From positions 1,645,851 to 1,709,850 of the forward strand of contig JAHRHZ010000095.1 in NCBI GenBank assembly GCA_024137785.1: a DNA stretch of 64,000 bases, in the 5' to 3' direction. Each line of letters starts with the position of its first letter. Position 1 is the stretch's first letter. Positions 2,971 to 64,000 of the stretch are shown in pieces. The stretch is from Ginglymostoma cirratum (lineage: Eukaryota). Both the position numbers and the translations under genes were made by a program. Under the pieces are notes generated by a model. The model was not told the origin of the DNA. It searched no databases and saw only the letters and a list, made by a program, of their open reading frames with translations.

Positions 2971-3391
2971 ATATGTTTCTGCTACGCAAGTAATCCATGC
3001 TTGCTAAGAAAGTATTGCCAGAGTATCACTGGGGAAACCTTTTGGTAGCAAATCTGTTCTGTAAGCTTAACTATGTTCAAAGTAGTAATCAGGATCTATA
3101 TGTTCAAAGTCGTCATCAGGATCTATTTTGTGAGACATTTCCCCTTGCTATTTTTGCTATTGTGTATGACCTGAGCTAATGCCATATTACACAAACTCTA
3201 TGTAAGAGGTGGGAATTAATGGTTCTCAATTTTTCATGCGATCTTAAAAATTACTAAGTGAGATTTGAACAGCTTACATTTTATTGAATTATTTAAGGAG
3301 TGCCAGGAATGAAGCAAAGCTGTTTTCTGTATAATGTTACCCATTCCATGGCCTCTGTTTTGTATAACTTGTTAATTCTTTGTCATTGCAG

Positions 3392-3427
3392 GTGGATATG
3401 CAGCAGCTAAAGCTGCTAAATACGGAG
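3392..3427 (+). CDS. eln: Elastin exon A, KA cross-link domain [12 protein letters not shown]
   Basis: tctttgtcattgcag|GTGGATATGCAGCAGCTAAAGCTGCTAAATACGGAG|gtaaat; 36 nt. Confidence 0.92.
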
Positions 3428-33400: not shown

Positions 33401-36400
33401 CACTCATTTTCTCTGACTCCTCGTGTAACTTCCCTCCTTTGTCCTTGAGTGGGCCAACCCTTTCTCTGGTTACCCTCTTGCTCCTTATGTACGAATAAAA
33501 GGCTTTGGGATTTTCCTTAACCCTGTTTGCTAAAGATATTTCATGACCCTTTTTAGCCCTCTTAATTCCTCCTTTCAGATTGGTCCTACTTTCCCGATAT
33601 TCTTCCAAAGCTTCGTCTGTTTTCAGTCGCCTAGACCTTATGTAAGCTTCCTTTTTCCTCTTTGCTAGTTTCTCAATTTTGCCTGCATTCCATGGCTCCC
33701 TAATCTTGCCCTTCCTGTCCCTCATTTTCAAAGGGACATGTCTGTCCTGCACTCTAATCAACCTCTCTTTAAAAGCCTCCCACATATCAAATGTGGATTT
33801 ACCCTCAAACAGCTGCTCCCAATCCACATTCCCCAGCTCCTGCAGAATTTTGCTATAGTTGGCCTTCCCCCACTTCAGCACTCTTCCTTTCGGACCACTC
33901 TCGTCTTTGTCCATCAGTATTCTAAAACTTACACATCCTTTACATCCTATCACATCCTTTACTTCTTTACATTTCCCTACTGCCGGCAGATAACCTGATT
34001 GTAAGTCCAGGTTTTCTTTCTCCGTACTTTTTTAATGAGTGGTATTAAATTGCTACTGTCCAATCTGCTGGGACTGTTCCAGAGCCATATGCTGTCATGT
34101 CTTTCCAAAATTAATGTTAAGTTAAGTGAGATGCGGTGAGAGTGACAGCCCTTGACATCAAGGCTGCATTTGATTGAGTGTGGCATCAAGGTGCCCTAGC
34201 AAAACCAGAATCAATGGGTATCAGAGGGCAAACTCTCCACAGGTTGGATTCATACCTGGCACATAGGAAAATGGTCATAGTTGTTGAAGGTCAGTCATCT
34301 CAGCTCCAGAACACCTCTGCAGGAGTTCCTCAGGGTGGTGTCCTAAGCCCAACCATCTTCAGCTGATTTGTCAATGACTTTCCCTCCATTATAATGTCAG
34401 AAGTAAGGATATTCGCTAATGATTGCACAATGTTTGGCACCATTTGCAACTTCTCAGATACTGAAGCAGTCCATGTTCAAATGCGACAGGATCTGGACAA
34501 TATCCAAGCTTGGGCTGATAAGTGGCAAGTAAAATTCGTGCCACGCAATGCCAGGCTGTAACCATCACCAATAACAGACAATCTAACCACCACCCTTAAT
34601 ATTCAGTGGTGTTTCCATCACTGTATCTCCCACTGTCAACATCCTGGGGGTTATCATTGACCAGAAACTCAACTGGACTCGCCACATAAAAGCAGTGGCT
34701 ACAAGAGCAGGTCAGAGGCTAGGAATGCTGTGGCCAGTAACTCACCTCCTGACTTCCCAAAGCCTGCCTATCATCTACAAGGCACAAGTCAGGAGTGTGA
34801 TGGAATGCTTCCCACTTGCGTGGATGAGTGCAGCTCCAACAACACTCAAGAAGCTTGACACCGTCCAGGACAAAGCAGCCTGCTTGAGTGGCACTACATC
34901 TACAATCATCCATTCCCTCCACCACCGAAGTGTATAATGCTGCTACTGAGCTGTCTATAAGATGCGCTGCAAAAATTCACCAAAGATCCTCAGATAGCAT
35001 CTTCCAACCCACGACCATTTCCATCTAGAAGGACAAGGGCAGCAGATACATGAGAACACTGCCACCTTCAATTTCCCCTCCAAGTCACTCATTATGCTGA
35101 CTTGAAAATATAATGCCATTCCTTTGCTATCGCTGGATCAAAATCCTGGAATTCCTTCCCTAATGGCATTGTGGGTCAACTCATAGCAGGTAGACTTCAG
35201 TGGTTCAAGAACAGAACTCATCACCACCTTCTCAAGGGCACCTACGGTTGGGCAATAAATACTGGCCAGCCAGTGATTCCCACATACCACAAAAATGAAT
35301 TGTAAAAAAGTGCATTTTTAAAGTTAATATATTTTGATACTTTAATACATTTGGATAACCTAATCAAAAGCCAAATAGAATAAAACATATTTTTCATTAA
35401 TTGCATTAATGTTCTTTCTTTACCGCAGAATCCAAAACTGTTTCACTGCTGAAGGAGGCCATTGTGTCTTCAAATGAGCATCTTGGTCTCAATCCTCTGC
35501 CTTCTTCTCATAGCTCTTCACATTGTTACTTTTCAAATAACTATCTAATTTTGCTTTTGAATGCCTAAATTAAACCTGCCTGCACCACCCAGCATTACAT
35601 TCCAGAACCTAATTGCTCACTGCGTGGAAACATTTTTTGCTCATATCACTTTCACTTTCACTAATTACTTCAAATTTGTGCCCTATCATTCTTGTTCTTT
35701 TCATGAGAGGGAGCAATTTCTCCAAATTTAATCTGCCTAGACCTCTTTTGATTCTGAATACTTCAAAACAGATCTTCTCTTCTCCAAGGAAAACAATCCC
35801 AGCTTCTTCAATCTGTCCTCATAACTAAATTTCTCAACTCTGGAATATTTGCTTCAGTCGGTAATTGATATGTCATCTCCAGATTTTTCTTTTATTAATT
35901 TCAGACTATGGGACAGCCTGAAGTGCTTTCTAGCAATTATTTACTTTTTGGAGTGGCATTACTGTTGCTATGTTGATGACCGCAGGAACAAATTGGCATT
36001 AGGAACTAGTCATGCATATAGCAAATACTATAGAGAGTAAAACAATTCTACTGGTTATTCAAGAGTTGAACAAGGTAATTAGGAAAGTTCCTTACCCTTG
36101 GTGGATAGTGCCTTAGAAGCACCCTGTCCCACAGAGTTTGGCTTTAAGTTTAACATCTCATCCAGTAGATATGATATCTAACAATCCAGCACTGCCTCCA
36201 ACTTGCATGGAAGGAGACTAGTTAGGACGAATAACAGCTCACCTTGAGGTGTTGAAATGAACGTCTAGAATTAAAAAGTGAACATGGATCAAGGTTCACA
36301 TTATTCGTATCGCTGTCAAACACTGTTGGCCAAAAACCCCTTAACTTGCACTATTTTGTAAATAAATCATTTACTGTTTCTAATTATTAAATTCTTGTTA

Positions 36401-39400
36401 TCTTAATATAGGTGTTGGAGTAGGAGTGCAGCGGGGCGCTGGAGTAGGTGTGAAGCCAGGCGCTGGAGTTGTTCAACCTGGTATTGGAGTTGGTAATTTG
36501 CTGTCTTCTGAAAGATATTTTGCTCCATTTTACTTTGTTTATAGCCGATGTAATTCTGTTCTGCGCTATTTCTGTATGTGGTGTTACCACGTTATGCAAT
36601 GAAATGTCACAACTAACTGAACATTGCTACAATCATAGAATACCAGAGTCTCTTGATAATTTCATAGTTACAATTTTTTAGATGAGCATTTGCCCAATAG
36701 AGTTCAGAAATTGATCTGAGTAATTTTTGTTATTGTGGAATGTTTCTGACTCATATTTCCCAGGAATGCTGTGCGGTTGTAATCTTCCGTATTTCATGAT
36801 CAATGACATTTTTGTCATATCTATGTAGAGACAGACTTAGCTGTATTATTACAATAAATTTACTTTTCCATTTCATTCTAGGCGGAGCTGCTGCATCTAA
36901 AGCTGCCAAATATGGAGGTAAAACTACAGTTGCTAACATATATTCACTGGTCAATGTAATGATCAAATTATTATCCTTGAAGATCAAGGTAAAGCCAATT
37001 AAATGTGAAAGAGAAAAGAATTTAAATGGTGAATGTAATGGCTATGTGAGACGCATTTCCACATTAGTAACCTATACTCTGATCATTCTTGCAACATCAA
37101 AACAAAGCAAAGCTTGTGGATGCTGACAATCTGAAATTCACGAGAACAAAAAATGTTGGAGAAACTCAGCAAGTCTGGCAGCATATGTGATCTGCTTAGT
37201 TTCTCCAACAGTTTTTGTTTTCATATATTTCAGATCGCCAGCATCCACAATGTTTTGTTTTGATGTTGCAAATCTGGCAGCATATGTGATCTGCTAAGTT
37301 TCTTCAACCATTTCAGTTTTTGTGTCTTGCAATGTCAAAGTCGGTCAGATGATCTGGTGCAACCGTTAAATTGAAGCAGAAAACACCATCAAGTACTCAA
37401 TGATGTGTTTTGAAGCTTTTAGCATATTTTTTCTTTTATTTTGAAAACTGATTCTTACTAGTAACCAATTTATAAATAAATTGTTATGCTAGTTTAGTGA
37501 TTGTCAAGACACCAGAAAGCCTCATCCTTTGGATAATGTAATATCTTCTTAGATAGCTTTAATAAACCTACTCAGGCATGTTATGACACTCATCTGGAGC
37601 AGGTGGGACTTAACTCTGGGCCAGGAGGTTTAGGTTTAAGAGCACTACCACTGCACCTAATATTCCCAGTTGGTCTCCCATCCAAGCACTAACAAGGCAT
37701 AGGTCTGCTTAGTTTTTGAGATTAGGCTTTTTTAGACTAGTATGGCCATCAGTTTATTGCAGCTTTTCAGATCAATGATAACAGACAGATTGCCTCATCA
37801 AAAAGACAGCAGCTCTGAAAAATGCTGCATTTTTCCATCCCACATCTAAGAATAATACTTAGTAGCATAAGATCTTAGTTTAAACGTTGAAGTGCTGGAA
37901 TTAAAAAGGCAGCAGATTTCCTGGGGCAATTTTATTTCACTGTGTGCCACAATAGACCAAAAAAACCTTAATTTTTTTTTGCTTTAATGTTCTAAAATAA
38001 CAAGTCACTATTTTGGAATATCACATTCTTTTTTGATCTCAATGTAGGTCTTGGAGTGGGTGTGCAGCCTGGCGTTGGAGTGGGTGTGCAGCCTGGCGTT
38101 GGAGTGGGTGTGCAACCTGGCGTTGGAGTGGGTGTGCAACCTGGTGTTGGAGTGGGTGTCCCGGCTGGCATCGGAGTAGGTAAATTACTGTCTTTTGGAT
38201 GACATTGTTCTCCATTCTATTTTACAAAGAGTATATAACTCTACTTCATCCCAATTCTGTGCAAATGGAGATATCTGACTCACTTTGAAATTAATATCAA
38301 AAGCGAAAGAAAAAAGCAACAGCTGGATGCATTCATCAAGGACATTGTATGAAGAGTTATTGGATTGCCAAGAGAGTGTGCAAGTTTTCTGAATGGCTGA
38401 GATTGTACATTCTAGCAATGTCAGCCTGTGATATACCTGTCAACCAAAATTAATTGGATGGACATCATTGGTTATTGTCTGTATGGCCAAAAAATACAGT
38501 AACAGGACTATGATATCATTTATAATGGCACTCAGGGAGTTATCACACATTTAGCACAATCATTCAATGTTACTTAAAACTAAATGATCTATGTCTTCTG
38601 CAGTTAAGCAATTTAGGCACTTCCATCAACGATTAATACTTGAAGTGCCAGCATTGGACTTTGTTTTGGCATTGCTCTAGTCACCATTCACATGGGAAAA
38701 CTTTTCTGCAACTCATGCCAGTATCTTTTCCTTCTCTTTAACTTCAGTTAGACTTTCTATGGTTCTAGGCAAAGCAATAAATTTAGTTACTCCACCTAAA
38801 TCATTACCTAGAAGTAAGTCAATTCCATCCACAGGTAACTTCTGAAAATTCCTACTACCAGTGTTTCAGATGGTAGGTCACATTCTGTGTGAACTTTGTA
38901 CATAGAAACAGGTAAGTATTTTCCACCTACCCTGTTTATTAAAACATTCAATTTTTATTAAAACTGCTTTCAAATCAGTCTCTCGGAAGGAGAAATAAAG
39001 CCCTTCTCTTGCAAAACTGATGCATAACTTCTGTATCCCTTAATGTAGTTTTGGCTTTAGCTGTATCATTTGAATAAAGGATTACTTTGCCTTTCATCAA
39101 AAATCTATTATATCACTCTCCTATCCTTCACCCCTCCTGCACTCAGCGGTATTTAACTTCGGTTTCACAGTTGCAGTCAAAGCTACGATTTGGTCCGTGG
39201 TACTTACCTTGTGAGTTCCCTTTTCAGATTCTCACTTATGAAACACAGTCAGTCTTACGTGCATTTGTTGCAACTTCCAGCATTTTGAATGAAAATGTTC
39301 TACTTTGTGACAATGGAAACAATTAAGCAAATGATTCTCTGAGCCCTTACTTTCTCGTCTCAGCATGAAATCCCGGAGCATTCCCAGCTGTTTCTTCTCT

Positions 39401-42400
39401 ACTGTGACTACTTACCTTCTTTCACCCTCTCACTTCTTATCCATTTCAGGTCTATGGAGTTGAAAGAAAAAATGATTTCCTTTATGATCCACCAGTTAAA
39501 TTTATTATGCTTTACCCTTTCAAATTCACATTAGGTTTGAAGTTATTTCCTTAAATTTTGAAACTTTTGTCTTTATGCTTCAGGAACTAACTCAAAAAAC
39601 CCAGAATTGCCTTTAATACAGCATCATAATCCAAAAGAATTCCTGTGACAGTGATGCATAAATTTATAACAAATTTATCCTCTAACATTTGGCAAAATCA
39701 AAATACTAATTACTAGAAGGCAAATTTAAAATATACCAACTTTAAATTCAAAAGCACATACATAGGACAGACAGACACAAAAGTTATCTTAGAAATATTG
39801 TGTGGTAAATGTAGGCAAAAACGACACTGTCTACAGATCAAAGTCCAAACCAAAAGGGGTGGAATGAGTAGAGTTTCTTCACAGTTCGTTTTTGAATTGC
39901 AGCTAGTTGTTGTTAACTGCGGCTGGCTTCAATTTGGTAGTCGGTCAGTTAGATTTAGATCTTGGCTGAAATTGGAAGTTGTTTTTCTTTTTGTGAGGAC
40001 AATTTTATTTCTTTTCCAACTGAAAAGAGAGCGTAAAAGAAGGATCTAACATGCGTTCAAGCTTTATGGAAGTCTCTGTTCCAATTGCACCTCAGGCCTA
40101 TGACAAGCTGTACTTTATCCAAATCCTGTTGCTGGATTGCTTTTTGAAAGATGCATGATGCCATTGCGTCTCAAAAGTATCAAAATCCAGCCTCCAACAC
40201 CAAAAAAGTTAAATGTTATTGTGTAACCATTAAATGTCTACACAGTTGCACTTTTGAGTTATGAGGTAAAACTGACTCATTCATTCTCTACAACAGAGTA
40301 GTCCAAATTTCTGTTTTCCAGTTCATATTTCCAAACAAAATATCTGTGGTCATTAGAGCTTAACCTGACTTACTTAGAGCTCAATTTCTGAATAGACTCA
40401 ATGCTTGTTAGGAACAGCTCCAAGTATATTATTGTAAATACCAGGGTAAATTCAAGTCAGGATGCCCAAGTTTACATGTTTATGGGTAATGAAACACCGT
40501 CAGCAAGAGTTCCAATGGAATAGTAGCAATATTTTTTAAAAAGTATTCTCTGACGGTTTTTGACATCATTGGCAAGGCCAGCATTTGTTGCCTGTCCCTA
40601 ATCATTCATGAACTGAGCTGCACACAAGACCATTTCAGACAGCTCTTAAGAGTCAACCACATGGCTGTGGATCTAGAGCCACATGTAGACCAGACTGAAT
40701 GAGGATGACAGATTCCCTAAAAAGACATTAGTGACCAGAAATAACAGCCGATGATAATCTCATGGCCGCCAATGCTGAGATTACCTTTCATTTCTGGATT
40801 TTATTAATTGAATTTAAATTCCACCAGTTGCCATAGTAAAATTTGAACCTATACCTCAAAGCATTAGCATAGATCTCCAGATTACTGGATGAGTGCTATT
40901 ACTACCACCATCATCAGAAGATATAATTTAAGATTTTACTTCCAGCATAAATTGGTACCCAGAACATCTGATGCCATTCTAATCCTCAATAACAACAAAC
41001 ACTTTAGTATTCACTGCTGCTTGTATCAGAAGATCAGAGTCCATTTTTCTTCTTGTCAGGGAGTCAAAAGTTAGAGGCAATAACCATAAAACAGTGGCCA
41101 ATAAATCCAATAGAGAATTCAGAATATGACCTTTTACCCAAGGAGTGACTAGAATGTGGAACTGCCCCATACAATTATTTGTTGAATCAATTAACATGCA
41201 TGGATTTAAGGTAAAAATAGATAAAACAAAACACACGGGAGAAAATCAAGAATACCTTTACATGGTATAATTAAGCGCAAGCTTTTTAGACATACAGTAT
41301 ATTCACCGGTCTCTGCTTGTACAGAGAATGTTCTCATGTATGGGACATGTTCGCTATGCAGAATGGCTATATGACAATTGACTGATTTTAGGGCAGGTGA
41401 ACAACCAAAGTAATAGCAGTACTACCACTTTTAGTAAGATGTTTAGGTAGGTTGTACAGGTCAGGAGAGAATATCAAGAAGAATGTCAGGACCTTGATTT
41501 GGAAGCTATTATTGAATGTTTCTTCTTCAGCTGTAGGACCTATACACACATACTATGAGTAAGATAAGGAAGCAGATTCTAATCCATCACAACTAGAATG
41601 GAGTTCTATCCCAGTTGAGCCACACCACCCATTCAGCAAACTAATCTAACTGGTTCCTCATGATGTCCATGCACTTTCCATGCATGCTGTAGATCAGAAC
41701 AAAGAATGAAGATGGTAGAGTCTGTCATTTTCTTTTTATCACATATCTGACCAAGAATCTCACTCACTCTTATTGCCTGTCATTGGCAGGTTTGGAATGA
41801 TTGGAAGGTTTACAGGTTGATAGTATGAATGTAGCTTCCTTGGCCATCAATCCTACAGTAGGACTTGAACTCAGAGCCCAGTGAACAGCAGGAACACTAC
41901 CCACTATGCCACGATTCCTCCCATCTATTCAATATATTCATATAAGGTTTTTTTTTAAATCTGTTTGGTAATTAAATGTAAACCAAGCTCAGCACACTTC
42001 TTGAAACATTTGAGAACATCGACCTAATTCTAATGTGTTAATTAAACTTGACAAGAACTGTCTGAATTTGGAAAGAAATGCTTCATCACAAAGTTGATAT
42101 TCACCCAATGGAATTCAGGTTAACATCAGTTCAACTTGGACAATTCATTTTAATGAGCAAGATTTCAGAGAATCTATTTTTCAGGAATGTTGTGTTGCTG
42201 TAATCTTCAGAATGCTTCTTGTTATGCATATATGAGGACACTGTAGCTGTAACTGTATCAAAACTTACTGATTTTTCTGTCACTGCAGGTGCAGCTGCTC
42301 CATCTAAAGCTGCTAAATATCAAGGTAAGTCCACCATCTGCTAACAGATTCGCTGGTCTAAATAATTGTCAAATCATTATTTTTGAGGATTAAAAAAAGT

Positions 42401-54400: not shown

Positions 54401-57400
54401 ATCTAAATTCTACAGTGTTATTATTAGACCATTTATTAAACCTGCTTCATTACACATTACCAGATTCAAAATAGCCTGATTGCTGATTGCATCCAAAGTC
54501 ATTGTACTAGAAAATTATCCCGAACATGCTGTATCAATTCTTCCTCATGGCTACCTGTGCCCACTGATTTACCAGAAATATATGAAGATTGAAGTCACCC
54601 ATGATTCATGTTTTACCTTTTTTTACATGCCCTCATTATTTTCTGATCTATTCTGTATCAGTCCAGTTGTTGTTAAGGGGCCTGTACACTACTCTCACCA
54701 ATGTCTTCAGCCCCTTGTTATTTGTTACTTCCAACCACAAAGATTCTACATCGTCCAATCCAAGATCATTTCTAACATCAAGGAGATGTATTGCAAATTA
54801 AGCACAAACTTTATTAAATTTCAAGCCTATATGTCAGTCCCCACCACATAAATGGGGCATGTTCTTGTGAATGATACCTGTCCACCCCACAGTGCTTGAT
54901 GTGACAGCTGGCAGACATTACGGCAAGTGAGCACGCGTTGTAATGCCTGTGTTGCCACTTTTAGTGCTTAAGAACTTCTTTGGGTCAGCTACAATGTCAG
55001 GGAAGATGTAAAAGACTTTGATTTGGAAACTACTAGTAAGTGCTTGTAATATTTTTAAAATGCAGTTCTTATTTTGAATAGATTCAGAGATGGTAGGAAC
55101 TGCCGATGCTGGAGAATCTGAGATAACAAGGTGTAGAGCTGGATGAACANNNNNNNNNNNNNNNNNNNNNNNNNNNNNNNNNNNNNNNNNNNNNNNNNNN
55201 NNNNNNNNNNNNNNNNNNNNNNNNNNNNNNNNNNNNNNNNNNNNNNNNNNNNNNNNNNNNNNNNNNNNNNNNNNNNNNNNNNNNNNNNNNNNNNNNNNNN
55301 NNNNNNNNNNNNNNNNNNNNNNNNNNNNNNNNNNNNNNNNNNNNNNNNNNNNNNNNNNNNNNNNNNNNNNNNNNNNNNNNNNNNNNNNNNNNNNNNNNNN
55401 NNNNNNNNNNNNNNNNNNNNNNNNNNNNNNNNNNNNNNNNNNNNNNNNNNNNNNNNNNNNNNNNNNNNNNNNNNNNNNNNNNNNNNNNNNNNNNNNNNNN
55501 NNNNNNNNNNNNNNNNNNNNNNNNNNNNNNNNNNNNNNNNNNNNNNNNNTGCTGCTTGGCCTGCTGTGTTCATCCAGCTCTACACCTTGTTATCTCTTAC
55601 TTTTAATACTTCTTTTTGATATTAAAACTGAACTAAGCTTCTCATCTTCCTACCTTCAAAATCCTTCCCCTCAAGCATATCTGAAGTCAGAGATCACTTT
55701 CTTAAATCTTACATCTAGAGATTGGGTATCATTCAAGTCCATTTGGACTGCACCTCTCCTACATTGGATGAGCAATCTAATCCATTCTACCCAAGATCAA
55801 CTACCATTCTCACCACCACCCTCAAACCAAGAAACCACTTTGAGCTGTGACCTAGTCCCAATCCTTACCACCCAACTGGAAGCAAAGCCTGTCAGTCAGA
55901 TGGACATCCGGATAATGGGTCTGATCAGGACAAGATGCATGTTGTGGACACTGTTATGTAAGGGCTTCAGAACTCTGGCATAACCTTGTGGTGATGTCAT
56001 TGAGCTGCGCATCGCTCAGCTTAAATAACAAGTTTGGGTAGAGTTTGGCTGTAGCAGCATACACTACATTTAGAATGAGAGAGACTTGAGTACATATGAA
56101 CATAAACACAGAAAGAATCAAAACAGCCCCATTTGCATTTTTTGTAGCCTGATACTCTCAATTAATTAAAATTTAGAATTTTGTGATGAGTTTTGAGAGT
56201 TACCAATAGTTCTCAAAATATGGAAATGGAGGATTGCTTATAACTTACTACAGTTTTGATATACCATAACTACAAGTTCAAGAAGATCTAAAAGACTAAA
56301 GTCCAAAAAACTAAAGACAAAAGATTAAGATTCATGGTTAACTTAAAACTGGTAATTACAACATTCTGCATTACTCGCCTTTGTCTTGTTGCATTCATCT
56401 ATTGGAATTTGATGAGTCCAAAGGTACAACAAATGGAACATGTCCATGATTGTCCCTCATTAGATCAAACTTTCATTTTCAGCTCCACTGACTATGTCCT
56501 AGCAAACCAGTTTCAAAGTCTTCATCTTCATTTTCAAAAGCCTCTTGCAATAATGATTCATATGAAGTTCCCCCGGCGTAAATGTTGAAATCCCAGAATG
56601 TAATTTTGAAAATCAAATCTGATTTTAAAAATTTGGACTTGTTCCAAAAACACAACAGGTTCACTGCTGTCTTTCAGAGAAATAAACCCGATTTTATTCC
56701 TGATCTGCTAAAATATGATTCCAGTCCCACTCCAGTTTCATTCATAAATTACCTAGCAAGCCATTCAATTCTGCTGGTACCTTCTCTCGGCCACAAGGTA
56801 GAAGCAATAAGTTTTGGCTTTCAGTTTCATCCATCATCAACAACCAATAATGAATAATCATACTCTGCACTTTAAGAATTCTTTCCAAGCCACTCAGACT
56901 TGTTATCCAAATTGGGTTCTGGGTACCAACTACTGGCAGCTGTTATTTGCTGTTCACTGTAATCACTGTTTCCTTCTATGTTGATTCTGTGCCACTGTCT
57001 AATTACCAGTGATAGGTGATAGATCACCAGAGAGCCTTAACCAATAAAGGTGTTTATTTTGGCAAACAAAGTATAGGTTATTGCATGAGAACAATGGATA
57101 CAATTAACATTAACCAGTCAGACATAGTTATAACCATCAGGAACCAGTTATGTACACGTAAAAACAAAACGCTGCGGATGCTGGAAATCTGAAATAAAAA
57201 CAAAGTGCTGGAGAAACTCAGCAGGGGTTCTGGTGGCATCTGTAGAGAGAGAAATAGTGTTAATGTTTCAAGCCTGATGTGACTTTTCCAGAACTGTAGG
57301 TTTAATTGTCACATAACATAGTTTGATATATCTGACAACGTTTAATCTAAAAGTTCTGACCATAGCAGGTAAGACTGATCTGTTCTAGAATTCCTGCAAC

Positions 57401-60400
57401 AATCAAGCAATTTTTGCAGCAGTGGTTATTCTGCTAATCAAACAAAGTTTGAAGCTTTTGTTTTCAAAGCCTGTTTATTTTCTTTACTATTGGGATGTGA
57501 TGAGACTGACAAACTAGTATTATTAATCAAGCACAATTAGGGATGTAAAATGATTGCCTTGCCTGCGATGTTTACGCCACATGGGCAGAATAAATTTCAG
57601 TAGTATTCAGTATCAAATGTGTAGAGCTTGACTGGATCTTCTGACAAAGACAATTAGTATCAATTACCTTTCTCCTAACTATCACATTAATAAGTACCAT
57701 GAAAAGACATTTAGAGATTATTTTCTTTAAATTCAAACTTGGTTCAACTTTCCAAATTAATTTTTAACAAAAAGTCTGTTTTACCTTTGTTGATTCACAT
57801 AATACACCCATTAAAGACAGAAGAAAAGGGATTTGTTGAGCAATGCTGCCTACAAGCTAATGAATTAAAAAGCAATTAAAGAAAATTCATGTTGTCTAAA
57901 TTTTTATCATGGTATATTTCATGTTCTCATCATAACACAAATGGCCCTCCTGAAGGACAGCTAATTTTTTTTTGGGCAGGCATTTCTCTTTGTAACACTG
58001 TTTGACATTTGGTGACTTGATTCAATGATTTTATTTTTTAAAAATTATCTGGGAAATAATTCCACAGAGGCCAGTATTTCATCACCAAGTCAGCCTTTAT
58101 TTAAACATGGAGAATCTTTGACAATGACCCAGCTTCCTCAGAGCCAGCTCTCAGAGTGAACAGAACTTCTGACAGTCCTTATCAGTCAGCCAAGGCTCCC
58201 AGACTGGACCAGATTAACAGCCCTTAACAATCAGAGAACTCATATTCTATGAGGTCCACCTAGCTGACCTCATTACAGTCACTTCAATTTACTTTTGAAC
58301 TCCACTCCCTTTCCATACTGTATGCATCTATGACTCTATATGGGACTAGTTCAGTTTTGGAAACTTGTTCGGCATGGACAAGTTGGGCCAAAGAGCCTGT
58401 TTCCATTCTGCAAGCTTCTATGACTCTACAACTAGTTTGGTCAATTCTCAACCTTTTCTCTGCGATACAATTTATTGAATGAACAACTGTCCCGCAGAGA
58501 ACAGTTAACCATATAATATTCTATGTGCACATTTTTTGTATCAGATTTCCTTCAGAATATTAGACATGTACACCTGCATATTTATTGTTTCTATTTATAT
58601 CAGTGTTACAACATCTAGGGTACTTTTAACTACTTTTTTAAAAATTTTATTTGTTTCCCAGGCAACATGCATTATCATTTCCTGTCAAAAATATGACAAA
58701 CTCTGATGCACTAAAATGCTTCCCTGGATGACTGGCAGATTAAACATTGCTGAAAATAAGTAATTTCTCATGTGTGGATCACCTAAGATAGGAAATGTGA
58801 TGCACTTATCTGAATTTAACTTCTTTAATATTTTACTTGTTTTCAGAACATCCTCAAATGTACCCTATTTTAAGATGATGCACAGCTCTGTTAGGTTATA
58901 ACTGAGATTGGGTCTAGTCTGAGGGCAGACTGACCCATTCCATTTCTGATTTGCTTTGTTTCAACCTGTCTTGTAAATTAGTCAGTCGCCACAAAAACTT
59001 CTCAACCATAAGGGTTTCTAATTCTCATTCTCTCCTTCCATGCCTTGCCAAGTAATTCCAATTGAAATTTTCTGTCTGAAAGAAATCTTAATTTCCAATC
59101 TCTGCCTTCAGGCAACCTTTCTATGTTATCACAATTAATGGAATCCTAGCTGGGATGGAAAATAGCAACAAGATTTACCTTTTCTTTGTGGAAATTGATT
59201 ATTCATTCCTACAGTTTTCATCCAACATTCCATTGTCTTAACTGATTCGAATTTTAAGTTCTTACGGGCAATTAATGTCAACCACCTGTTTCTTTTAACC
59301 TTAACAATGCCATGAACAAAACTTAACAACATGATTGACAAGACACAAACAAGCAAGAGCATAAGGAGTGTTTACTGGGGGCCTTTTTGTGGTGCAGTAG
59401 TAGTGTCCTGTCCCCTGGGCCAAGAGACCCAGGTTCAAATTCCACCTTCTCTAGAGGTGTCTAGTTACATCTCTGAACAGGTTGTTCTCGGGGGGAGAAA
59501 ATAAAGGACTGCTGGCTTTGTATATGGCACCTGCAACTCCAGAGGTTCTACATTGCTAATATCACACCTTGATCCTTCCAGTTCTTATATTTGAAAATAT
59601 GAGGTAATTTCTTTGTTCATTTGGAAGTAAATCAATAAGGTCCATCATCTTGATCAAATCTAGAAATCAGCCAATATTTAAAGAATGAGTATCATACACT
59701 ATTTGGACACATAAATTCTTGAACATTTAGGAGTATTTACAAAATATTAATGTATCACACACTGATGATTAAATTTCACTTTATTGCATCACACATTGCA
59801 GAATTTTGTGCGTAAACATGAAGATAAACTCACTGCCCTTGAAGTTTAACTATTGCGTGACCAGCTTTTCTTAGAAACCTGGATAGCTTGTTGCCCTCAA
59901 ATTGAAAATTATGGAGACAATAAATGGATCAATTTCTTCCATTTTGCTTCAAACTTCAAAAGGTCCAATTGGGATGAACTTCATGCTGCAACCATAAAGC
60001 AGAATTCTTTTAATTTAAAAGGGAGATAGAGCAAACCCAGGAACTATAGACAACTTAATTTAACATGGATTATAGGAAACAGAATTAAATCTTTACTCAG
60101 AAGATATAATAAGAAAAACATTTAGAAACAGAAAGAGATAATAATGAATGTTCAGTACAGCTTTCAAATAGTAGATCATGTTTGAACAACATTGAGGATT
60201 ATTTGAATAAGTAACAGAAAGACCAGACAAGAATAATACAGTAGATATAATGTACATATATTTTCAAGGTTTTTGCTAAGGTAATGCATTGTAGACACGT
60301 GAGTAAGATTGAATGACGCAGAATTGGAAAAATAATAGATAATACTGGAGACAAAGTTGAAAGTAGACTGTAGGGGTTAATGTTGTTGCTGAAACTGAAA

Positions 60401-62591
60401 AAAGTGTCAAATGATATTCCACAAGTCTCATCATTGGGAACAGTGTTCATGTTTTACATGAACAATTTGGAGTCAGGAAACAGGAGTGGACATCACTGAA
60501 TCAGAGATTTATATTAATATTGAGGAACACTGTGACAAATTGTAAATCAATGTTAATAAACTTACAAAAAGGGCATGTCATTGTGAAATTGATTTCAGTT
60601 AAGATAAATGGAAGGTCACTCAGTAAGAAGAATATAGAGGTCACTCTCTGGAAATAAGAATACAAGTGGGTTAGAAAGCAGAAGGATCTAAAGGTACAGA
60701 TGAGCAAATCACTAACGATAATGATACAGACTATCAAAAGGGGAAAATAGCATTGGGTTTCATTTCCATAGGGAGAGGATGGAATAACGGACCTTTGTAT
60801 TAAACACAGTTGAACCTTGTTGAGCCCACATGGTCACGGTTCTGCTCTCCGTACAGTATATGCAAGCATTGGAGAAGATGCAAATAGTAACTAAAAAGGG
60901 TGACGCCAGAAATAAAATGAGAAACTTATCAGGTAAAACTCAACAAACCAGGGCTGTCCTCTCTAGGGAAAGGAAAGTTGAGGGATAACCTGGTTTTGGT
61001 CTTAAAGATCATGAAAGGAATTGTTAGGGTTGTAGAAAGAGGGCAATGGATTGTTTTCAACATAATGTAATTTTGATTGGAGTAACCAGAAGTGTGTGCA
61101 TCATTCCTGCATTCATCCTTTTTCCCAAACAGTTGCAATTAAAATTTCAAATGCCAGCAACATGCATAAGAGATACTTGCAATGATGTGAGAGCTGAAGC
61201 CTTTGAATGGCTGAATGCACTATCAGTTGACAATTCTGCAGCTACAGATGGGCTGTAAGAGGAACCTGCTGGCAAAATTGCATCACTGTCAAAACTTCTA
61301 TACCAACTTCGCTGCTATTAACATAAGTTTTGATAGGTCAAATGTTGCAGGGATGATTTTCATAGTTAACTTGTAAGCTGCAACATGTTACTTGTAAATA
61401 TTTAGCATTACATTAGTTTCACTTTATTCGTGTATGTAATAGATGTTAATGATAGAAGTTTCAGGGAAGAAAATTGCTGTTAATCTTTTGAATGCCTCTT
61501 GTCATGTCTGTATACAGATAGTCTGTTGATTCTGTACCATTGCAGGTGGACTTGCCCCATCTAAAGCTGCTAAGTATAGAGGTAAATATTCCTACTTCTG
61601 ATATAATCATTAATCTGTATAATCATCAAATTATTGTTTTACATTTGAGAGTGTAATGTAGTTTTATTCTGTTAAAGAGATTAATGATATTTGTAAATTA
61701 ATGATTTACTGGGTGAAATTTAATGTCCTTCTCTTTGAGGAGTTTGGCAGTTGAGGGTGGGGAGGCTTTTGACTCTGAATGGAGAGTGGTGATTGGCTTC
61801 CCATCTCCATCATAATTAAGTTCATCGTGTGAAGATCTGTGGGTGTACGCAGCCTCTAAATTTAACCAAATGATGAACAGGGCTCAGCATGTGAGGGGTA
61901 TAATAATCAAACTCATAGATGGTTGATGGGAGGACTGTAGTGGTGCAATGGTCGTGTGCCTACTTCTGAACCAGGAGGGCTGAATTCAATTCCCATCTGC
62001 TTCAGATGTGTGGAATAATATCTCTGAGCAGATTGATTGGAAAGTACCTGATTGCTTGTATGCTTTCGGGTAGAGGGGGCATCACTAAAAGGTACTCAAT
62101 GCCTGACCAAGGAACCCAGCATTTAGGATTGGAGATTGTTGCCGAGAGCCGCCTCCCTGCTTTTGCTGTTGATCTGTATTCATATCTCCATGATCAGACT
62201 CCACAATCCCTTCTTGCCATCACTCACCACATTTAGCCAAGCCTTGGATGTGTGCCCTATCAGCAACAATCACTGCCTCTCCATTGGTACTGCTCTTCAA
62301 ATAACCTGCTGTTCCCGGATTGACTGGAGAAACCTAGTGGGTGCGACCTCTGCCCACAGGATCCTTGAATCCAGGGAAAGCTTGACACTGTCCGCTTAAG
62401 TGCATGAGAATGCCTCTTTTGTGGAAGGCTATGTGGATCTCTCACTGGCTCTTCAGCCAGTGGGCAAGAATCACATCTTTAAAAACTGTCCAATATTTCT
62501 GATTATTAAATTCTTGTAATCTCAATTGCAGGCCTGGGATTGGGTGTGCAACCTGGCGTAGGAGTAGGTGTTCTGCCTGACATCGGAGTGG
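3392..62591 (+). CDS. eln: Tropoelastin-like (elastin) gene, internal 15-exon portion; both ends lie outside the window
   Basis: 15 AG/GT-flanked phase-1 exons total 912 nt and join in frame without stops. KAAKY cross-link exons alternate with G/V/P hydrophobic exons, the established tropoelastin architecture. Exon letters below are local to this window. Confidence 0.9.
6198..6332 (+). mobile_element. Solo Penelope-like terminal repeat with hammerhead motif
   Basis: Near-identical to the arms of the element at 30307-31067; flanked by the direct repeat atgcacat (6190-6197 and 6333-6340). Confidence 0.8.
6204..6231 (+). ncRNA. Minimal type I hammerhead ribozyme motif
   Basis: CUGAUGA-A-GGGU(UUAG)GCCC-GAAA-C-GUC; short helix I AUUU/AAGU. 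Confidence 0.65.
6925..7385 (-). mobile_element. Degenerate CR1 3' fragment
   Basis: Minus ORF ends [13 protein letters not shown], the typical CR1 ORF2 C-terminus. Confidence 0.7.
7560..8940 (+). mobile_element. Highly degenerate Penelope-like element with an internal insertion
   Basis: [17 protein letters not shown] leads into a decayed GIY-YIG region; ends in a degenerate terminal repeat near 8850-8940. Confidence 0.5.
9558..9593 (+). CDS. eln: Elastin exon B, hydrophobic [12 protein letters not shown]
   Basis: ttgtgctgttaatacag|GAGCGATTCCAGGAGCTGTTCCAGGGGCTATAGCAT|gtacag; 36 nt; weak donor; flanks resemble exon E. Confidence 0.7.
10883..11118. repeat. Long near-perfect inverted repeat
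   Basis: 10908-10979 is the reverse complement of 11022-11093; outer extension acagcacaatgcttat/ataagcattgtgctgt. Confidence 0.9.
11120..11740 (+). mobile_element. Non-autonomous retroposon-like repeat
   Basis: GC-rich body; ends gtgacaataaagctaattcagttcaattc (polyA signal plus short-repeat tail). Confidence 0.45.
11890..14100 (-). mobile_element. Decayed Gypsy-type LTR retrotransposon pol remnant
   Basis: ORF 12683..12940 has ADTSCTGLG and YTLIEKE (RNase H-like). The minus strand near 13330-13377 reads FNRLPFG..APEIF. Confidence 0.75.
14830..15130 (+). mobile_element. 3' tail of a CR1/L2-group LINE
   Basis: Colinear with 34980-35290, ending aactagggatgagaaataaatgcttgcccagcc. Confidence 0.7.
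15382..15426 (+). CDS. eln: Elastin exon C, hydrophobic (G/C)[14 protein letters not shown]
   Basis: atattgcag|GTGGTCCAGGAGCT...GTTGTACCCG|gtaagt; 45 nt. Confidence 0.88.
16190..18430 (-). mobile_element. Degenerate CR1 LINE
   Basis: Minus ORFs with [21 protein letters not shown] and endonuclease-like [10 protein letters not shown]. Confidence 0.8.
17247..17337 (-). mobile_element. Truncated Penelope-like terminal repeat inserted in the CR1
   Basis: Reverse-complement match to 6205-6295; first C of CUGAUGA lost at the junction. Confidence 0.8.
18638..19405 (+). mobile_element. Penelope-like element 3' fragment with inverted terminal repeats
   Basis: EHLCSI...[36 protein letters not shown] (GIY-YIG C-terminus); 18638-18790 is an inverted copy of the 3' end. 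Confidence 0.85.
20364..21360 (-). mobile_element. Penelope-like element of a second family (RT C-terminus plus GIY-YIG), frameshifted
   Basis: [15 protein letters not shown]; [30 protein letters not shown]; REFLEA. Confidence 0.9.
20402..20443 (-). ncRNA. Mutated hammerhead ribozyme motif
   Basis: Minus strand UGCA-CUGAGGA-U-GUUACCA(AGCA)UGGUAAC-AAAA-C-AUC-UGCA; GAAA box reads AAAA. Confidence 0.65.
21852..21887 (+). CDS. eln: Elastin exon D, KA domain [12 protein letters not shown]
   Basis: tctttgtcatttcag|GTGCAGCTGCTGCAGCCAAAGCTGCAAAATATGGAG|gtaaat; 36 nt. Confidence 0.92.
22135..22700 (-). mobile_element. CR1 3' fragment
   Basis: Colinear with 31680-32250. Confidence 0.7.
22720..23300 (+). 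mobile_element. Degenerate CR1 RT fragment
   Basis: ILAWIEDWL and RFADEMKIG motifs. Confidence 0.7.
23320..25500 (-). mobile_element. Degenerate CR1/L2-group LINE, same family as 34140-35310
   Basis: Reverse-complement colinearity, e.g. ccttgatgccaca versus tgtggcatcaagg; shared 3' tail. Confidence 0.75.
26476..26838 (+). mobile_element. tRNA-derived SINE with LINE-derived tail
   Basis: A/B-box-like head (tggcctactgg...ggtttgaatcc); tail gggcaattagggatggataataaatgctg shared with the LINE end at about 35235-35290. Related minus-strand copies at about 25560-25860 and 40545-40910. Confidence 0.75.
27480..28100 (+). mobile_element. CR1 3' fragment
   Basis: LYRALVK...[19 protein letters not shown]. 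Confidence 0.75.
28543..28563 (+). CDS. eln: Elastin microexon E, GAPGGIT
   Basis: ttgtgctattaatttag|GTGCTCCAGGAGGTATAACAG|gtacaa; 21 nt; an alternative in-frame donor follows 28554 (gtataa). Confidence 0.7.
30408..30435 (-). ncRNA. Minimal hammerhead motif, antisense arm
   Basis: gacgtttcgggcctaaacccttcatcag, reverse complement of the 6204-6231 motif. Confidence 0.65.
30974..31001 (+). ncRNA. Minimal hammerhead motif, sense arm
   Basis: ctgatgaagggtttaggcccgaaacgtc. Confidence 0.65.
31228..31263 (+). CDS. eln: Elastin exon [13 protein letters not shown]
   Basis: ttgtgtctttaatacag|GTGCTGAAGGAGCTGTTCAGCCTGGAGTTCCGGGAG|gtaagg; 36 nt. Confidence 0.87.
31662..33930 (-). mobile_element. 5'-truncated young CR1 LINE (RT)
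   Basis: ORFs 32646..33953 and 31743..32636 ([26 protein letters not shown]) separated by one stop; short-repeat tail (aaagaac)n. Confidence 0.95.
34140..35310 (+). mobile_element. CR1/L2-group LINE 3' fragment
   Basis: [14 protein letters not shown]; [17 protein letters not shown]. Confidence 0.85.
35425..35850 (-). mobile_element. Degenerate CR1 3' fragment
   Basis: Colinear with other minus-strand CR1 tails (gaaggaggccatt..., ttctccaaggaaaacaatcccagc). Confidence 0.6.
35900..36225 (-). mobile_element. Deu-domain SINE-like remnant (AmnSINE1/SacSINE1 group)
   Basis: gtttaacatctcatcc...cagcactgcctc and tacttttggagtggcattactgttg resemble the reverse complement of the Deu consensus as recalled from memory. 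Paralogous copies at about 37490-37860, 42620-42830 and 46280-46490. Confidence 0.6.
36412..36492 (+). CDS. eln: Elastin exon [28 protein letters not shown]
   Basis: atcttaatatag|GTGTTGGA...ATTGGAGTTG|gtaatt; 81 nt. Confidence 0.9.
36882..36917 (+). CDS. eln: Elastin exon H, KA domain [12 protein letters not shown]
   Basis: tttcattctag|GCGGAGCTGCTGCATCTAAAGCTGCCAAATATGGAG|gtaaaa; 36 nt. Confidence 0.92.
37661..37748 (-). pseudogene. Degenerate 5S rRNA-derived sequence
   Basis: Minus strand ggccatactagtct...ctaagcag...ttagtgcttggatgggagaccaactgggaata follows 5S rRNA including its C box. Confidence 0.8.
38048..38179 (+). CDS. eln: Elastin exon I, GLGVGVQP(GVGVGVQP)3[12 protein letters not shown]
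   Basis: atctcaatgtag|GTCTTGGA...ATCGGAGTAG|gtaaat; 132 nt; 24-nt coding tandem repeat. Confidence 0.92.
42289..42324 (+). CDS. eln: Elastin exon J, KA domain [12 protein letters not shown]
   Basis: tttctgtcactgcag|GTGCAGCTGCTCCATCTAAAGCTGCTAAATATCAAG|gtaagt; 36 nt. Confidence 0.92.
43009..43089 (+). CDS. eln: Elastin exon [28 protein letters not shown]
   Basis: atctgatttag|GCCTTGGA...ATCGGAGTGG|gtaatt; 81 nt. Confidence 0.9.
43670..44547 (+). mobile_element. CR1 3' fragment
   Basis: aagtttgcagatgacaccaaa (KFADDTK); 3' UTR ending gggcctgtttccgtgctgtatgcctctatgac. Confidence 0.85.
46044..46079 (+). CDS. eln: Elastin exon L, KA domain [12 protein letters not shown]
   Basis: ctctcattacag|GTGGAGTTGCTGCATCTAAAGCTGCTAAATATGGAG|gtatat; 36 nt. 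Confidence 0.9.
46671..46874 (+). CDS. eln: Elastin exon M, 8.5 copies of G[LVI]GVGV[QK]P
   Basis: atctcaaactag|GTCTTGGA...ATCGGAGTGG|gtaaat; 204 nt; overlaps ORF 46685..46945. Confidence 0.93.
47750..54850 (-). mobile_element. Older minus-strand CR1 fragments, split by the plus-strand CR1 at 49531-53248
   Basis: The two sides join as ...cccaact|ctgtgttaaattagttagccag; ttggtgtcatccataaactt is the FADD-equivalent on the minus strand. Probably more than one element. Confidence 0.65.
49531..53248 (+). mobile_element. Near-full-length CR1 LINE: ORF1 SGNH-esterase, ORF2 APE endonuclease plus RT; disrupted
   Basis: ORF1 [27 protein letters not shown]; endonuclease FNARS, YRPP, MGDFN, SDH; 572-aa RT ORF with KFADD. 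Frameshifts near 50110, 50590 and 51445 and a stop near 50535. Confidence 0.96.
55084..55596. mobile_element. Penelope-like insertion with inverted termini spanning the assembly gap
   Basis: gagataacaaggtgtagagctggatgaaca left of the gap and its reverse complement right of the gap. Confidence 0.75.
55150..55549. other. Assembly gap (400 N)
   Basis: Run of N. Confidence 1.
57160..57296 (-). mobile_element. Degenerate Penelope-derived short repeat
   Basis: gctgcggatgctggaaatctgaaataaaaacaaagtgctggagaaactcagc; relatives at about 5265-5395, 6745-6850 and 37110-37320. Confidence 0.6.
58050..58287 (-). mobile_element. Solo-LTR-like repeat
   Basis: TG...CA termini, minus-strand AATAAA (ctttatt at about 58095), about 240 bp; family recognised from memory only. 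Confidence 0.5.
59376..59485 (+). mobile_element. Short tRNA-derived SINE
   Basis: tggtgcagtagtagtgt...ggttcaaattcc; relatives at about 61930-62040 (+) and 37570-37660 (-). Confidence 0.65.
59990..61080 (+). mobile_element. Very old CR1 RT remnant
   Basis: aacccaggaactataga (NPGNYR); attccacaag...ttggga (PQG-like); no intact ORF. Confidence 0.55.
61546..61581 (+). CDS. eln: Elastin exon N, KA domain [12 protein letters not shown]
   Basis: ctgtaccattgcag|GTGGACTTGCCCCATCTAAAGCTGCTAAGTATAGAG|gtaaat; 36 nt. Confidence 0.9.
62532..62591 (+). CDS. eln: Elastin exon [21 protein letters not shown]
   Basis: atctcaattgcag|GCCTGGGA...ATCGGAGTGG|gtaatt; 60 nt. Confidence 0.88.
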
Positions 62592-63799
62592 GTAATTTAC
62601 TGAAAAACATTTTCATCTATTAATATTAAAATTTATCTTACTATTATTCTGTGTAAATGATGCTGTCTGGGCACACTTTCAAATTAACACCAAAGGCAGA
62701 AGGAAAATTGTAACTGTAGATTATTGCCATTGTGAAGGATGCTGTAAGGGAAGGTTAATAAATTCAGTTTATAAGTAAATGAACATTTATCATTTAATGT
62801 GCTGAATGGCTGAAGTTTTACATCGTTGTGACACCAGCCTGGGATACTCCTACCCATTGTAATTAATCAAAAGAAAATCACAAGGTTGAGGTGGCACAAA
62901 CAAAATTTCGGAATTAATGATGAGTAACCTCAGTTATAGTGGGAATCAGAGAACTAACATAGCTTAAGTAACACTGTAAGAGTGCATTAAAAGCAGTCGA
63001 TTTAGGGTTTCAGCAGGTAGAAAGAGAAACAATCAATTAGTGCCTAAGGAAAGTATCAACCCAGACCAGGTTTCACCCACAAGTTTGATGTGTTTCTGTG
63101 CAGGTATGGAGCAAATAAGCTTTAATTGTCAACATGTTGTGAAACCAGCAAAAACCAAACGGACTTTGGTTTTTTGAGCTGTATGTATTCTTTAGTCAGT
63201 GGAAAACTCCTTGACACAAGGGTCTTCCACTAAAAATATATTAAACCTAAGATTCTGATTTTTTACTATGTTCATGTTCTTCCTGGAACTCACCAGATAT
63301 CACAAGGAAAAAGGATAACAGAATCTGATGAGGCTGAATAATTGGGAAGCCAAAATCTGAAAATTGCTTTCTTGCCAAAGGTCTTGATCTGAGAGTATGC
63401 TTTCTTTGCTTTCAAGGTTTCTCAAGATTTTGACAGTAATTTCTGAAATTTGAAATTTCCTTTTGATCTTCTCTTCCAAGTTGCCTGGCTTCCCAGCAGC
63501 ATGGCATCCATATCTTTAGCTCTGCTCTGGACCACTGATAAGGAGAAAAGGGAGCAGCAAAGCAGCAGAACCATGACAAGGAAGAACAATAGTAACCTTT
63601 TCCTCAACCACCCATGCTGGGGTACCAGCTGAGGAGGCAATAACTCCAACAGAATAAATATATAAGCAGAAAATTCACTCCCTGAAAATGATTGAGAACT
63701 ATTGCCTCAGGTCGCTCATGAAGCTGATTGCAGTCTATTGATCAGATAACATTCTCTGATATTACTATGATTTTTAAGGAACAAAGCATTGAAATCAGG

Positions 63800-64000
63800 A
63801 TGATGGAGTGTGAAATATTAGATTTAAGTATGTTCGGAAATATTAAGAAGTTTGATATCTTTGAACATGGATATGTTCCCAGGTGCAAATAATATGTAGA
63901 AAAGGCTATTAAGGAAAATAGGAGAAGGAAAATAGGATGCTCTTGCCATCATTTTCCAGCCTTCTCTGGCCATAAGAGTAGTACCAAAGGGCAGGAGGGC
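63800..64000 (+). mobile_element. CR1 fragment cut by the window end
   Basis: ctattaaggaaaataggagaaggaaaataggatgctcttgccatcattttccag resembles the pre-RT LxExxxEIAxAL region. Confidence 0.5.

Follow-up and report, generated by a model that had tools for sequence, protein, structure and literature searches.

The results of our analysis prove that a unit of two exons is repeated, together with its introns, in the window (the whole stretch of 64,000 nucleotides analysed). The nine exons G to O and the exons upstream of them are, to judge from their sequence, probably part of the replicated region of a tropoelastin (eln) gene, probably that of a shark. We think it probable that the array grew by several near-simultaneous duplications of the exon pair, followed by changes private to each copy, a four-exon (tetrad) step being without support.

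The exon array and its repeat unit

Scanning the window for motifs in six frames and for splice sites placed all nine exons on the + strand, at the coordinates given in the original prediction. The upstream exons were lettered A, C, D and E in this analysis.

Exon A: 3392..3427, + strand, an older KA exon (36 nt) of this gene, serving as outgroup
Exon C: 15382-15426, upstream exon of the same style
Exon D: 21852..21887, + strand, an older KA exon (36 nt) of this gene, serving as outgroup
Exon E: 31228..31275, + strand, 48-nt hydrophobic exon spliced directly to G (joint 31275>36412)
Region upstream of G: 36156..36411, + strand, full extent of the homology to introns J-K and L-M, whose 3' ends it matches
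Exon G: 36412..36492, + strand, 81-nt hydrophobic exon of 8+8+7+4 codons, both ends supported by RNA
Exon H: 36882..36917, + strand, 36-nt KA-type cross-link exon, G>H joint found in RNA
Intron H-I: 36918..38047, + strand, homologous from end to end to J-K and L-M, with three private insertions
Exon I: 38048..38179, + strand, 132-nt hydrophobic exon of 5 octamers + 4 codons, predicted
Intron I-J: 38180..42288, + strand, piecewise collinear with K-L and M-N
Exon J: 42289..42324, + strand, 36-nt cross-link exon, J>K joint found in RNA
Intron J-K: 42325..43008, + strand, nearest to intron L-M
Exon K: 43009..43089, + strand, 81-nt hydrophobic exon of 8+8+7+4 codons, acceptor supported by RNA
Exon L: 46044..46079, + strand, 36-nt cross-link exon, predicted
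Exon M: 46671..46874, + strand, 204-nt hydrophobic exon of 8 octamers + 4 codons, best named match catshark tropoelastin, predicted
Intron M-N: 46875..61545, + strand, 14.7 kb, its unit-derived blocks split by a LINE, other insertions and a 400-N gap at 55150-55549
Unit-derived blocks in intron M-N: 46875-47689, 48620-48821, 54796-55045 and 61400-61539, + strand
Exon N: 61546..61581, + strand, 36-nt cross-link exon ending in KYR, with the most diverged flanks of H, J, L and N, predicted
Intron N-O: 61582..62531, + strand, like the other short introns only at its ends
Exon O: 62532..62591, + strand, 60-nt hydrophobic exon of 2 octamers + 4 codons, predicted

All ten of exons E and G to O have AG/GT ends, a length divisible by three and an open reading in phase 1. 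Hydrophobic and cross-link exons alternate strictly from G to O, with one domain per exon. KAAKY is encoded by each of the six 36-nt exons found (A, D, H, J, L and N), and the peptides of H, J, L and N read as had been predicted. The Gly/Val/Pro-rich domains are arrays with a 24-nt period in G, I, K and M, and the codon view extends this pattern to O.

The earlier claim that a two-exon unit had been duplicated repeatedly was borne out by the homology of flanks and introns. The flanks of G, I, K and M resembled one another with z up to 13 over shuffles and those of H, J and L with z up to 16, whereas comparison of the flanks of G, I, K, M and O with those of H, J, L and N gave z < 3.6. Introns H-I, J-K and L-M could be aligned from donor to acceptor. 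In the long introns I-J, K-L and M-N, collinear blocks occur at the two ends and centrally, with private insertions between them, and in intron M-N a LINE with endonuclease and RT domains lies at 50521-53159. Only the two ends were kept in intron G-H. The region 36156..36411 upstream of G matched introns J-K and L-M at 62-65% over 239-250 columns (blastn), and 300-430 bp downstream of exon O are homologous to the sequence downstream of I, K and M. From this intron and flank homology, the unit starts with a hydrophobic exon, followed by a long intron, then by a KA exon and by an intron of about 0.6 kb. Three-way site counts for units H-I, J-K and L-M over eight segments were star-like (209:222:240), and the segments h1 and h2 of this count, which have guessed boundaries and opposite directions, carry little weight.

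Transcripts and the reality of the array

Reads or contigs of four of the 24 runs were aligned to positions 31100-47200, exons N and O lying outside that stretch. The polyA run X22 contained GT-AG joints for E>G (4 reads), G>H (5 reads) and J>K (7 reads) among the 15 joints listed of 2254, and the same three joints were present in contigs of run X1. Run X23 placed 92 reads on 31100-47200, with no exon joint. Contigs of X3, which carry a second organism label, were collinear with the array from G to M and differed from it in about 3-4% of their letters (76 in 1948; 99 in 2476). Since these contigs are collinear at about 96-97% identity, the array from G to M did not arise as an artefact in the present assembly.

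The table of joints as a whole was dominated by LINE reads, which come from the LINE-rich introns of the aligned stretch, and four of the seven joints within it (H-I, I-J, K-L and L-M) did not figure among the 15 listed.

There is a negligible probability that misassembly produced the repeats or that they only look like coding exons. The 400-N gap inside intron M-N and the contigs that break within the arrays of I and M could be read in this way, but the copies, at about 35% divergence, are too different to be collapsed or doubled reads, splicing at three joints is seen in RNA, and the contigs of the second label follow the same order over G-M. Pseudo-exon and artefact readings were rejected on the basis of copy divergence, RNA joints and collinear contigs.

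Identity of the gene

A search with exon M against longer proteins returned five matches, among which the only named one (by its UniRef name) was the tropoelastin of the catshark Scyliorhinus torazame, with an E of 1.4e-9, 64% identity and 88% covered, in a match to low-complexity sequence. Because a nameless repeat protein without KAAK scored higher than this tropoelastin, the match of exon M alone is weak. We assigned the array to eln because the catshark match is combined with an architecture of alternating single-exon hydrophobic and KAAK domains, all of phase 1-1. It is the catshark match that points to a cartilaginous fish. The 36-nt exons (A, D, H, J, L and N) have 9-11 of 12 residues identical to the catshark KA domain. 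No Pfam family was above the cut-off, exons I and M giving sub-threshold repeat families only, and neither a signal-peptide exon 1 nor a terminal exon with the Cys pair and tetrabasic motif was present among the exon candidates of the 64-kb window. The neighbours expected of an eln gene, limk1 and septin 4/5, would lie beyond it.

The S. torazame sequence (GCB73870.1 / UniRef100_A0A401PL76) is a C-terminal fragment in which a SKAAKYR domain, an octamer domain, a GAKAAKL domain and a C-terminus with a Cys pair and basic residues follow one another. It is like the array in having a SKAAKY domain and then a domain of 8-residue period (G-x-G-x-G-x-x-P) that ends in GIG, whereas it differs in its length of 154 residues, in having one such pair and in its more varied octamers. 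As a query, the fragment retrieved no full-length shark elastin among the longer proteins and only itself at similar length. A HMMER search gave 43 matches, the 42 others being without an elastin C-terminus, which says nothing about absence. The order of domains in this one predicted protein suggests that N-O may close the array rather than open a third round, and that the exon after O would be of a type other than the SKAAKYG type that had been predicted. No candidate for the exon after O was found in 62592-64000, the remainder of the window.

Hydrophobic domains of the VGVQPG type provide self-assembly and recoil, and the lysines of KAAK domains are cross-linked by lysyl oxidase, roles that we transfer to these exons from their sequence only. 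With every extra exon pair the protein would gain an elastic segment and a pair of lysines. The roles of hydrophobic and cross-link domains in elastin are described in the available parts of PMC3291537 and PMC12733013.

Closeness of the predicted partners

The original prediction held that the two-exon unit was duplicated and diverged, that the resulting tetrad G-H-I-J was then duplicated as K-L-M-N, and that a third round started at O. Comparison of the flanks of the hydrophobic exons showed an identity (gap-free columns) of 0.64 for G-K, 0.64-0.65 for I-M and 0.67-0.68 for K-M, the last being the closest pair in all three alignments. For the KA exons, flank identity was 0.58-0.66 for J-N, 0.64-0.66 for H-J and 0.62-0.67 for H-L; J-N was below H-J in two of the three alignments and equal to it in one. 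The downstream flanks of J and N were 0.535 identical, compared with 0.67-0.72 among H, J and L. The predicted partners were no closer than other pairs, and the expectation that a later four-exon duplication would leave partners closest is not supported by these sequences.

Among the introns, J-K and its neighbour L-M matched best, at 71% over 383 columns with an E of 1.5e-56. Intron N-O matched J-K over only 99 and 46 columns, and nothing was found between L-M and N-O at E<=0.01 (blastn); the global score was -25 for J-K and N-O versus 338 for J-K and L-M. As N-O and J-K would be sister introns if a third round had started at O, this near lack of a match argues against such a round. Over the central and 3' portions of the short intron, J-K agreed with L-M at 75 sites versus 30 for H-I and L-M (p 1.3e-5), an excess to which faster evolution of H-I could contribute. 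The comparison downstream of the hydrophobic exons gave scores of 302 for K-M, 202 for I-M and 188 for I-K, with shuffle maxima of 55-78. No insertion common only to tetrad partners was found when introns H-I to N-O were compared.

Trees, site patterns and simulation

In the joint unit alignments, the tree that groups alternate units had the highest likelihood in all three cases, as had been predicted, with an advantage in lnL of 0.14, 4.2 and 0.40 over the neighbour tree (1-2|3-4). This advantage was never significant: the neighbour tree had p-AU values of 0.51, 0.14 and 0.49, the rivals as a whole ranged from 0.07 to 0.51, and the informative sites were divided 20:19:13, 24:17:13 and 19:19:16 in the three alignments. 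No quartet topology was rejected by the AU test in the 18 exon-class tests or the three joint tests, and none of the 15 five-taxon trees (G, I, K, M and O) was rejected with any of four alignments. With A and D as the root of the KA exons, N fell outside (H,J,L) in the best trees, as (N,(J,(H,L))) or its equivalent in both alignments. (H,L) was the maximum likelihood pair (SH-aLRT 88 and UFBoot 78-84, one alignment), and ((H,L),(J,N)) had a p-AU of 0.08-0.40.

The site patterns differed between segments (chi-square p 3.5e-4). The first 100 bp after the donor favoured GK|IM by 6:3:1 sites, while the 250 bp upstream favoured GI|KM (9:6:6, 9:6:6 and 7:4:6). Because of this disagreement a single simple history does not fit, and the pattern fits a mosaic history.

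The simulations (570 columns, 2000 replicates, Jukes-Cantor, no rate variation or alignment error) showed that an internal branch of 0.10 gives a tetrad excess as small as that observed with P of 0.003, 0.023 and <0.001, and branches of at least 0.10 are thus disfavoured, although the simulated data contained about 10 background sites versus 13-19 observed, which overstates the power. Branches of 0.05 or less were largely compatible with the data (P 0.04-0.40 at 0.05). If a tetrad step occurred, it follows from the simulation that there was hardly any divergence between the units beforehand, which goes against the 'duplicated and diverged' sequence of events first proposed.

Marks of the individual exons

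The marks on which the predicted pairing was based are present in the sequence, and most of them look ancestral or rest on one base. G and K both have 81 nt and a 7-residue unit. The acceptor motif common to G, K and O occurs three times on the + strand of the window, at 36377, 42975 and 62496, exactly upstream of these exons, and never on the - strand; it includes, 28-30 nt before the exon, what we take to be a branch-point-like YTRAY. I and M each differ from this motif at 6 of 18 positions and have no new base in common (by eye). As I and M lost it through different changes, the acceptor of G, K and O is most likely the ancestral one, and the motif was rejected as a synapomorphy of the three exons. 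The donors read gtaattt at G, K and O and gtaaatta at I and M, as described, but these words are short and are also found elsewhere on the + strand (12 and 5 times, respectively).

Among the KA exons, J and N have one derived exon base in common (the Ala to Pro change), as have L and N, and the states common to H and L are also present in A and D. The peptides of J and N do end in YQ and YR, but these endings arose by different codon changes (CAA and AGA) and are not a shared state.

The one good mark is the 7-codon unit with Ala that G and K share, although it may be ancestral and have been lost when I and M expanded; exon O is without it. I and M have the donor +5 base and long octamer arrays in common. 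A codon pair in the second octamer is common to K and M, and the first octamer of G resembles the second of K (both by eye), so the equal length of the two 81-nt exons may be partly coincidence.

Probable history of the duplications

Because every exon is of phase 1-1, the block can be duplicated without breaking the frame, and unequal crossing-over between the long homologous introns would be the likely route. The pair block would have been duplicated at least four times, close in time, to leave a near-star tree and about 35% intron divergence; these rounds, whose order we infer, would have given G-H, I-J, K-L and M-N, with N-O as an older or faster-changing end unit. Private changes would then have followed, namely the LINE and other insertions, the deletion in G-H and the octamer expansions in I and M. 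The four-exon rhythm would mostly consist of shared ancestral states and the expansions of I and M.

An unlikely alternative is a two-unit duplication in a shifted frame, soon after the first pair duplication, in which a lost KA exon with G-H-I would have given J-K-L-M, N-O would be older, and conversion or crossover between neighbours would later have made J-K and L-M alike. This would account for the 7-codon unit of G and K, for the long arrays and donor base +5 of I and M, for the 6:3:1 preference for GK|IM in the donor flank, for the rooted trees with N outside, and for the different signals carried by the segments. It would also explain why the homology upstream of G stops after about 255 bp and why exon E is joined directly to G, as would follow from the loss of a KA exon. 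However, an extra event is needed for the likeness of J-K to L-M (75 versus 30 sites) and for the best downstream match being K-M, the flanks of G-K and I-M are not closer than those of K-M, no common intron insertion was found, and the codon pair in the second octamer joins K to M. The duplication of G-H-I-J to K-L-M-N after divergence, with a third round from O, is improbable. It draws on the highest likelihood in the three joint alignments, on the look-alike exons (G/K, I/M, H/L and J/N) and on the absence of rejection by any AU test, but the youngest copies should then be the most alike, and the downstream flanks of J and N are on the contrary less alike than those of H, J and L are among themselves. 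The poor match of N-O to J-K and L-M, the absence of the 7-codon unit from O, the simulated limit on divergence before a tetrad step and the catshark order, which suggests that N-O is the end unit, count against it as well.

The broader proposition that a record of a two-unit (four-exon) duplication can still be read, most likely in the shifted frame and partly overwritten by conversion between neighbouring introns, is in our view doubtful. If it were true, elastin arrays would grow by multi-unit steps and homogenise in patches, and not only by single pair duplications.

Comparison with other elastin genes

The replication of exon pairs in elastins has already been published for amniotes and for a ray (available parts of PMC12554196 and PMC12733013), and the locus is a fresh example of a known process. 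Its value is modest because the mechanism is known. It is nevertheless a clean case, in which the copying of elastin exon pairs along with their introns is evident from intron sequence and not only from the style of the peptides. Together with other shark genomes, the locus could be used to date the expansion and to tell single-unit from multi-unit duplication. A tetrad step, if proven, would refine the exon-pair model rather than overturn it. Our search by title and abstract start, whose coverage left out most subscription papers, found no published account of a four-exon duplication in elastin, and the available part of PMC8875079 contained nothing further on growth by exon pairs. Elongation of elastin by exon-pair duplication is mentioned in the available part of PMC3291537, which cites Chung et al. 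2006.

According to the accessible text of PMC12554196, the replicated region of amniote tropoelastin (exons 15-29b) is a replication of cross-link/hydrophobic exon pairs, the old part of which was inferred mainly from domain sequence, and recent 4- to 8-fold repeats of exon pairs are present in passerines, with further repeats in turtles. That region resembles the array described here in its alternating single-exon hydrophobic and KA domains, its phase 1:1 borders and its growth by exon pairs. In birds and turtles the repeats are recent and almost identical, whereas the copies here are old, their introns being about 35% diverged and kilobases long but of still readable homology. The eln gene of the lesser devil ray has 70 exons, 24 KAAK and many copies of 36 nt and 48 nt, as reported in the part of PMC12733013 available. 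Its 36-nt KAAK exons alternate with hydrophobic exons as they do here, and exon E of the window also has 48 nt. The ray copies are uniform, at 36 or 48 nt, whereas the hydrophobic exons of the array vary from 60 to 204 nt through internal expansion of the octamers.

A probable older duplication of KA exons

Comparison of exon A and its flanks (3296-3460) with the region of exon N (61454-61684), A and N both being 36-nt cross-link (KA) exons, showed 69% identity over 169 columns, and comparison of the KA exon D and its flanks (21826-21997) with the same region showed 67% over 172 columns, the exon being counted in both times. The resemblance of A and D to N, flanks included, suggests that KA exons were also duplicated in an earlier phase of the gene's growth. 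When codons for the same residue were compared among the KA exons A, D, H, J, L, and N, 101 of the 135 comparisons (75%; the pairs are not independent) agreed at the third position, which is somewhat higher than the identity of the flanks; this agreement could result from a splice-enhancer constraint or from base composition.

Introns E-G and M-N

RNA reads showed that the hydrophobic exon E (31228-31275) is spliced to the hydrophobic exon G without an intervening KA exon (intron 31276-36411); one that once lay between them has possibly disappeared. The unit homology of G stops about 255 bp upstream of G, close to LINE insertions. The donor used in the RNA is at 31275, and a GTAAG is present inside exon E at 31264. 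Pfam endonuclease and reverse-transcriptase domains marked two LINE remnants, presumably CR1-type, in introns E-G and M-N, and many shorter related pieces are spread over the window. Pieces of a short dispersed repeat lie on both sides of an assembly gap in intron M-N, which may hide an exon.

31746-34031, - strand, LINE remnant, intron E-G
50521-53159, + strand, LINE remnant, intron M-N
55150-55549, assembly gap of 400 N, intron M-N

Candidate exons and charged residues

Splice-site scans gave two candidates upstream of G, the second under relaxed settings.

9558-9593, + strand, elastin-like PGAVPG stretch after a good acceptor
28543-28563, + strand, candidate micro-exon (21 nt, phase 1-1, Gly/Ala/Pro)

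The candidate donor of the former is weak, the base preceding it being T and not G, and its sequence is possibly that of a decayed or skipped exon. In the codon view, arginine and lysine are present in the hydrophobic exon G, and aspartate replaces glycine at 62577-62582, in the last unit of the predicted hydrophobic exon O.
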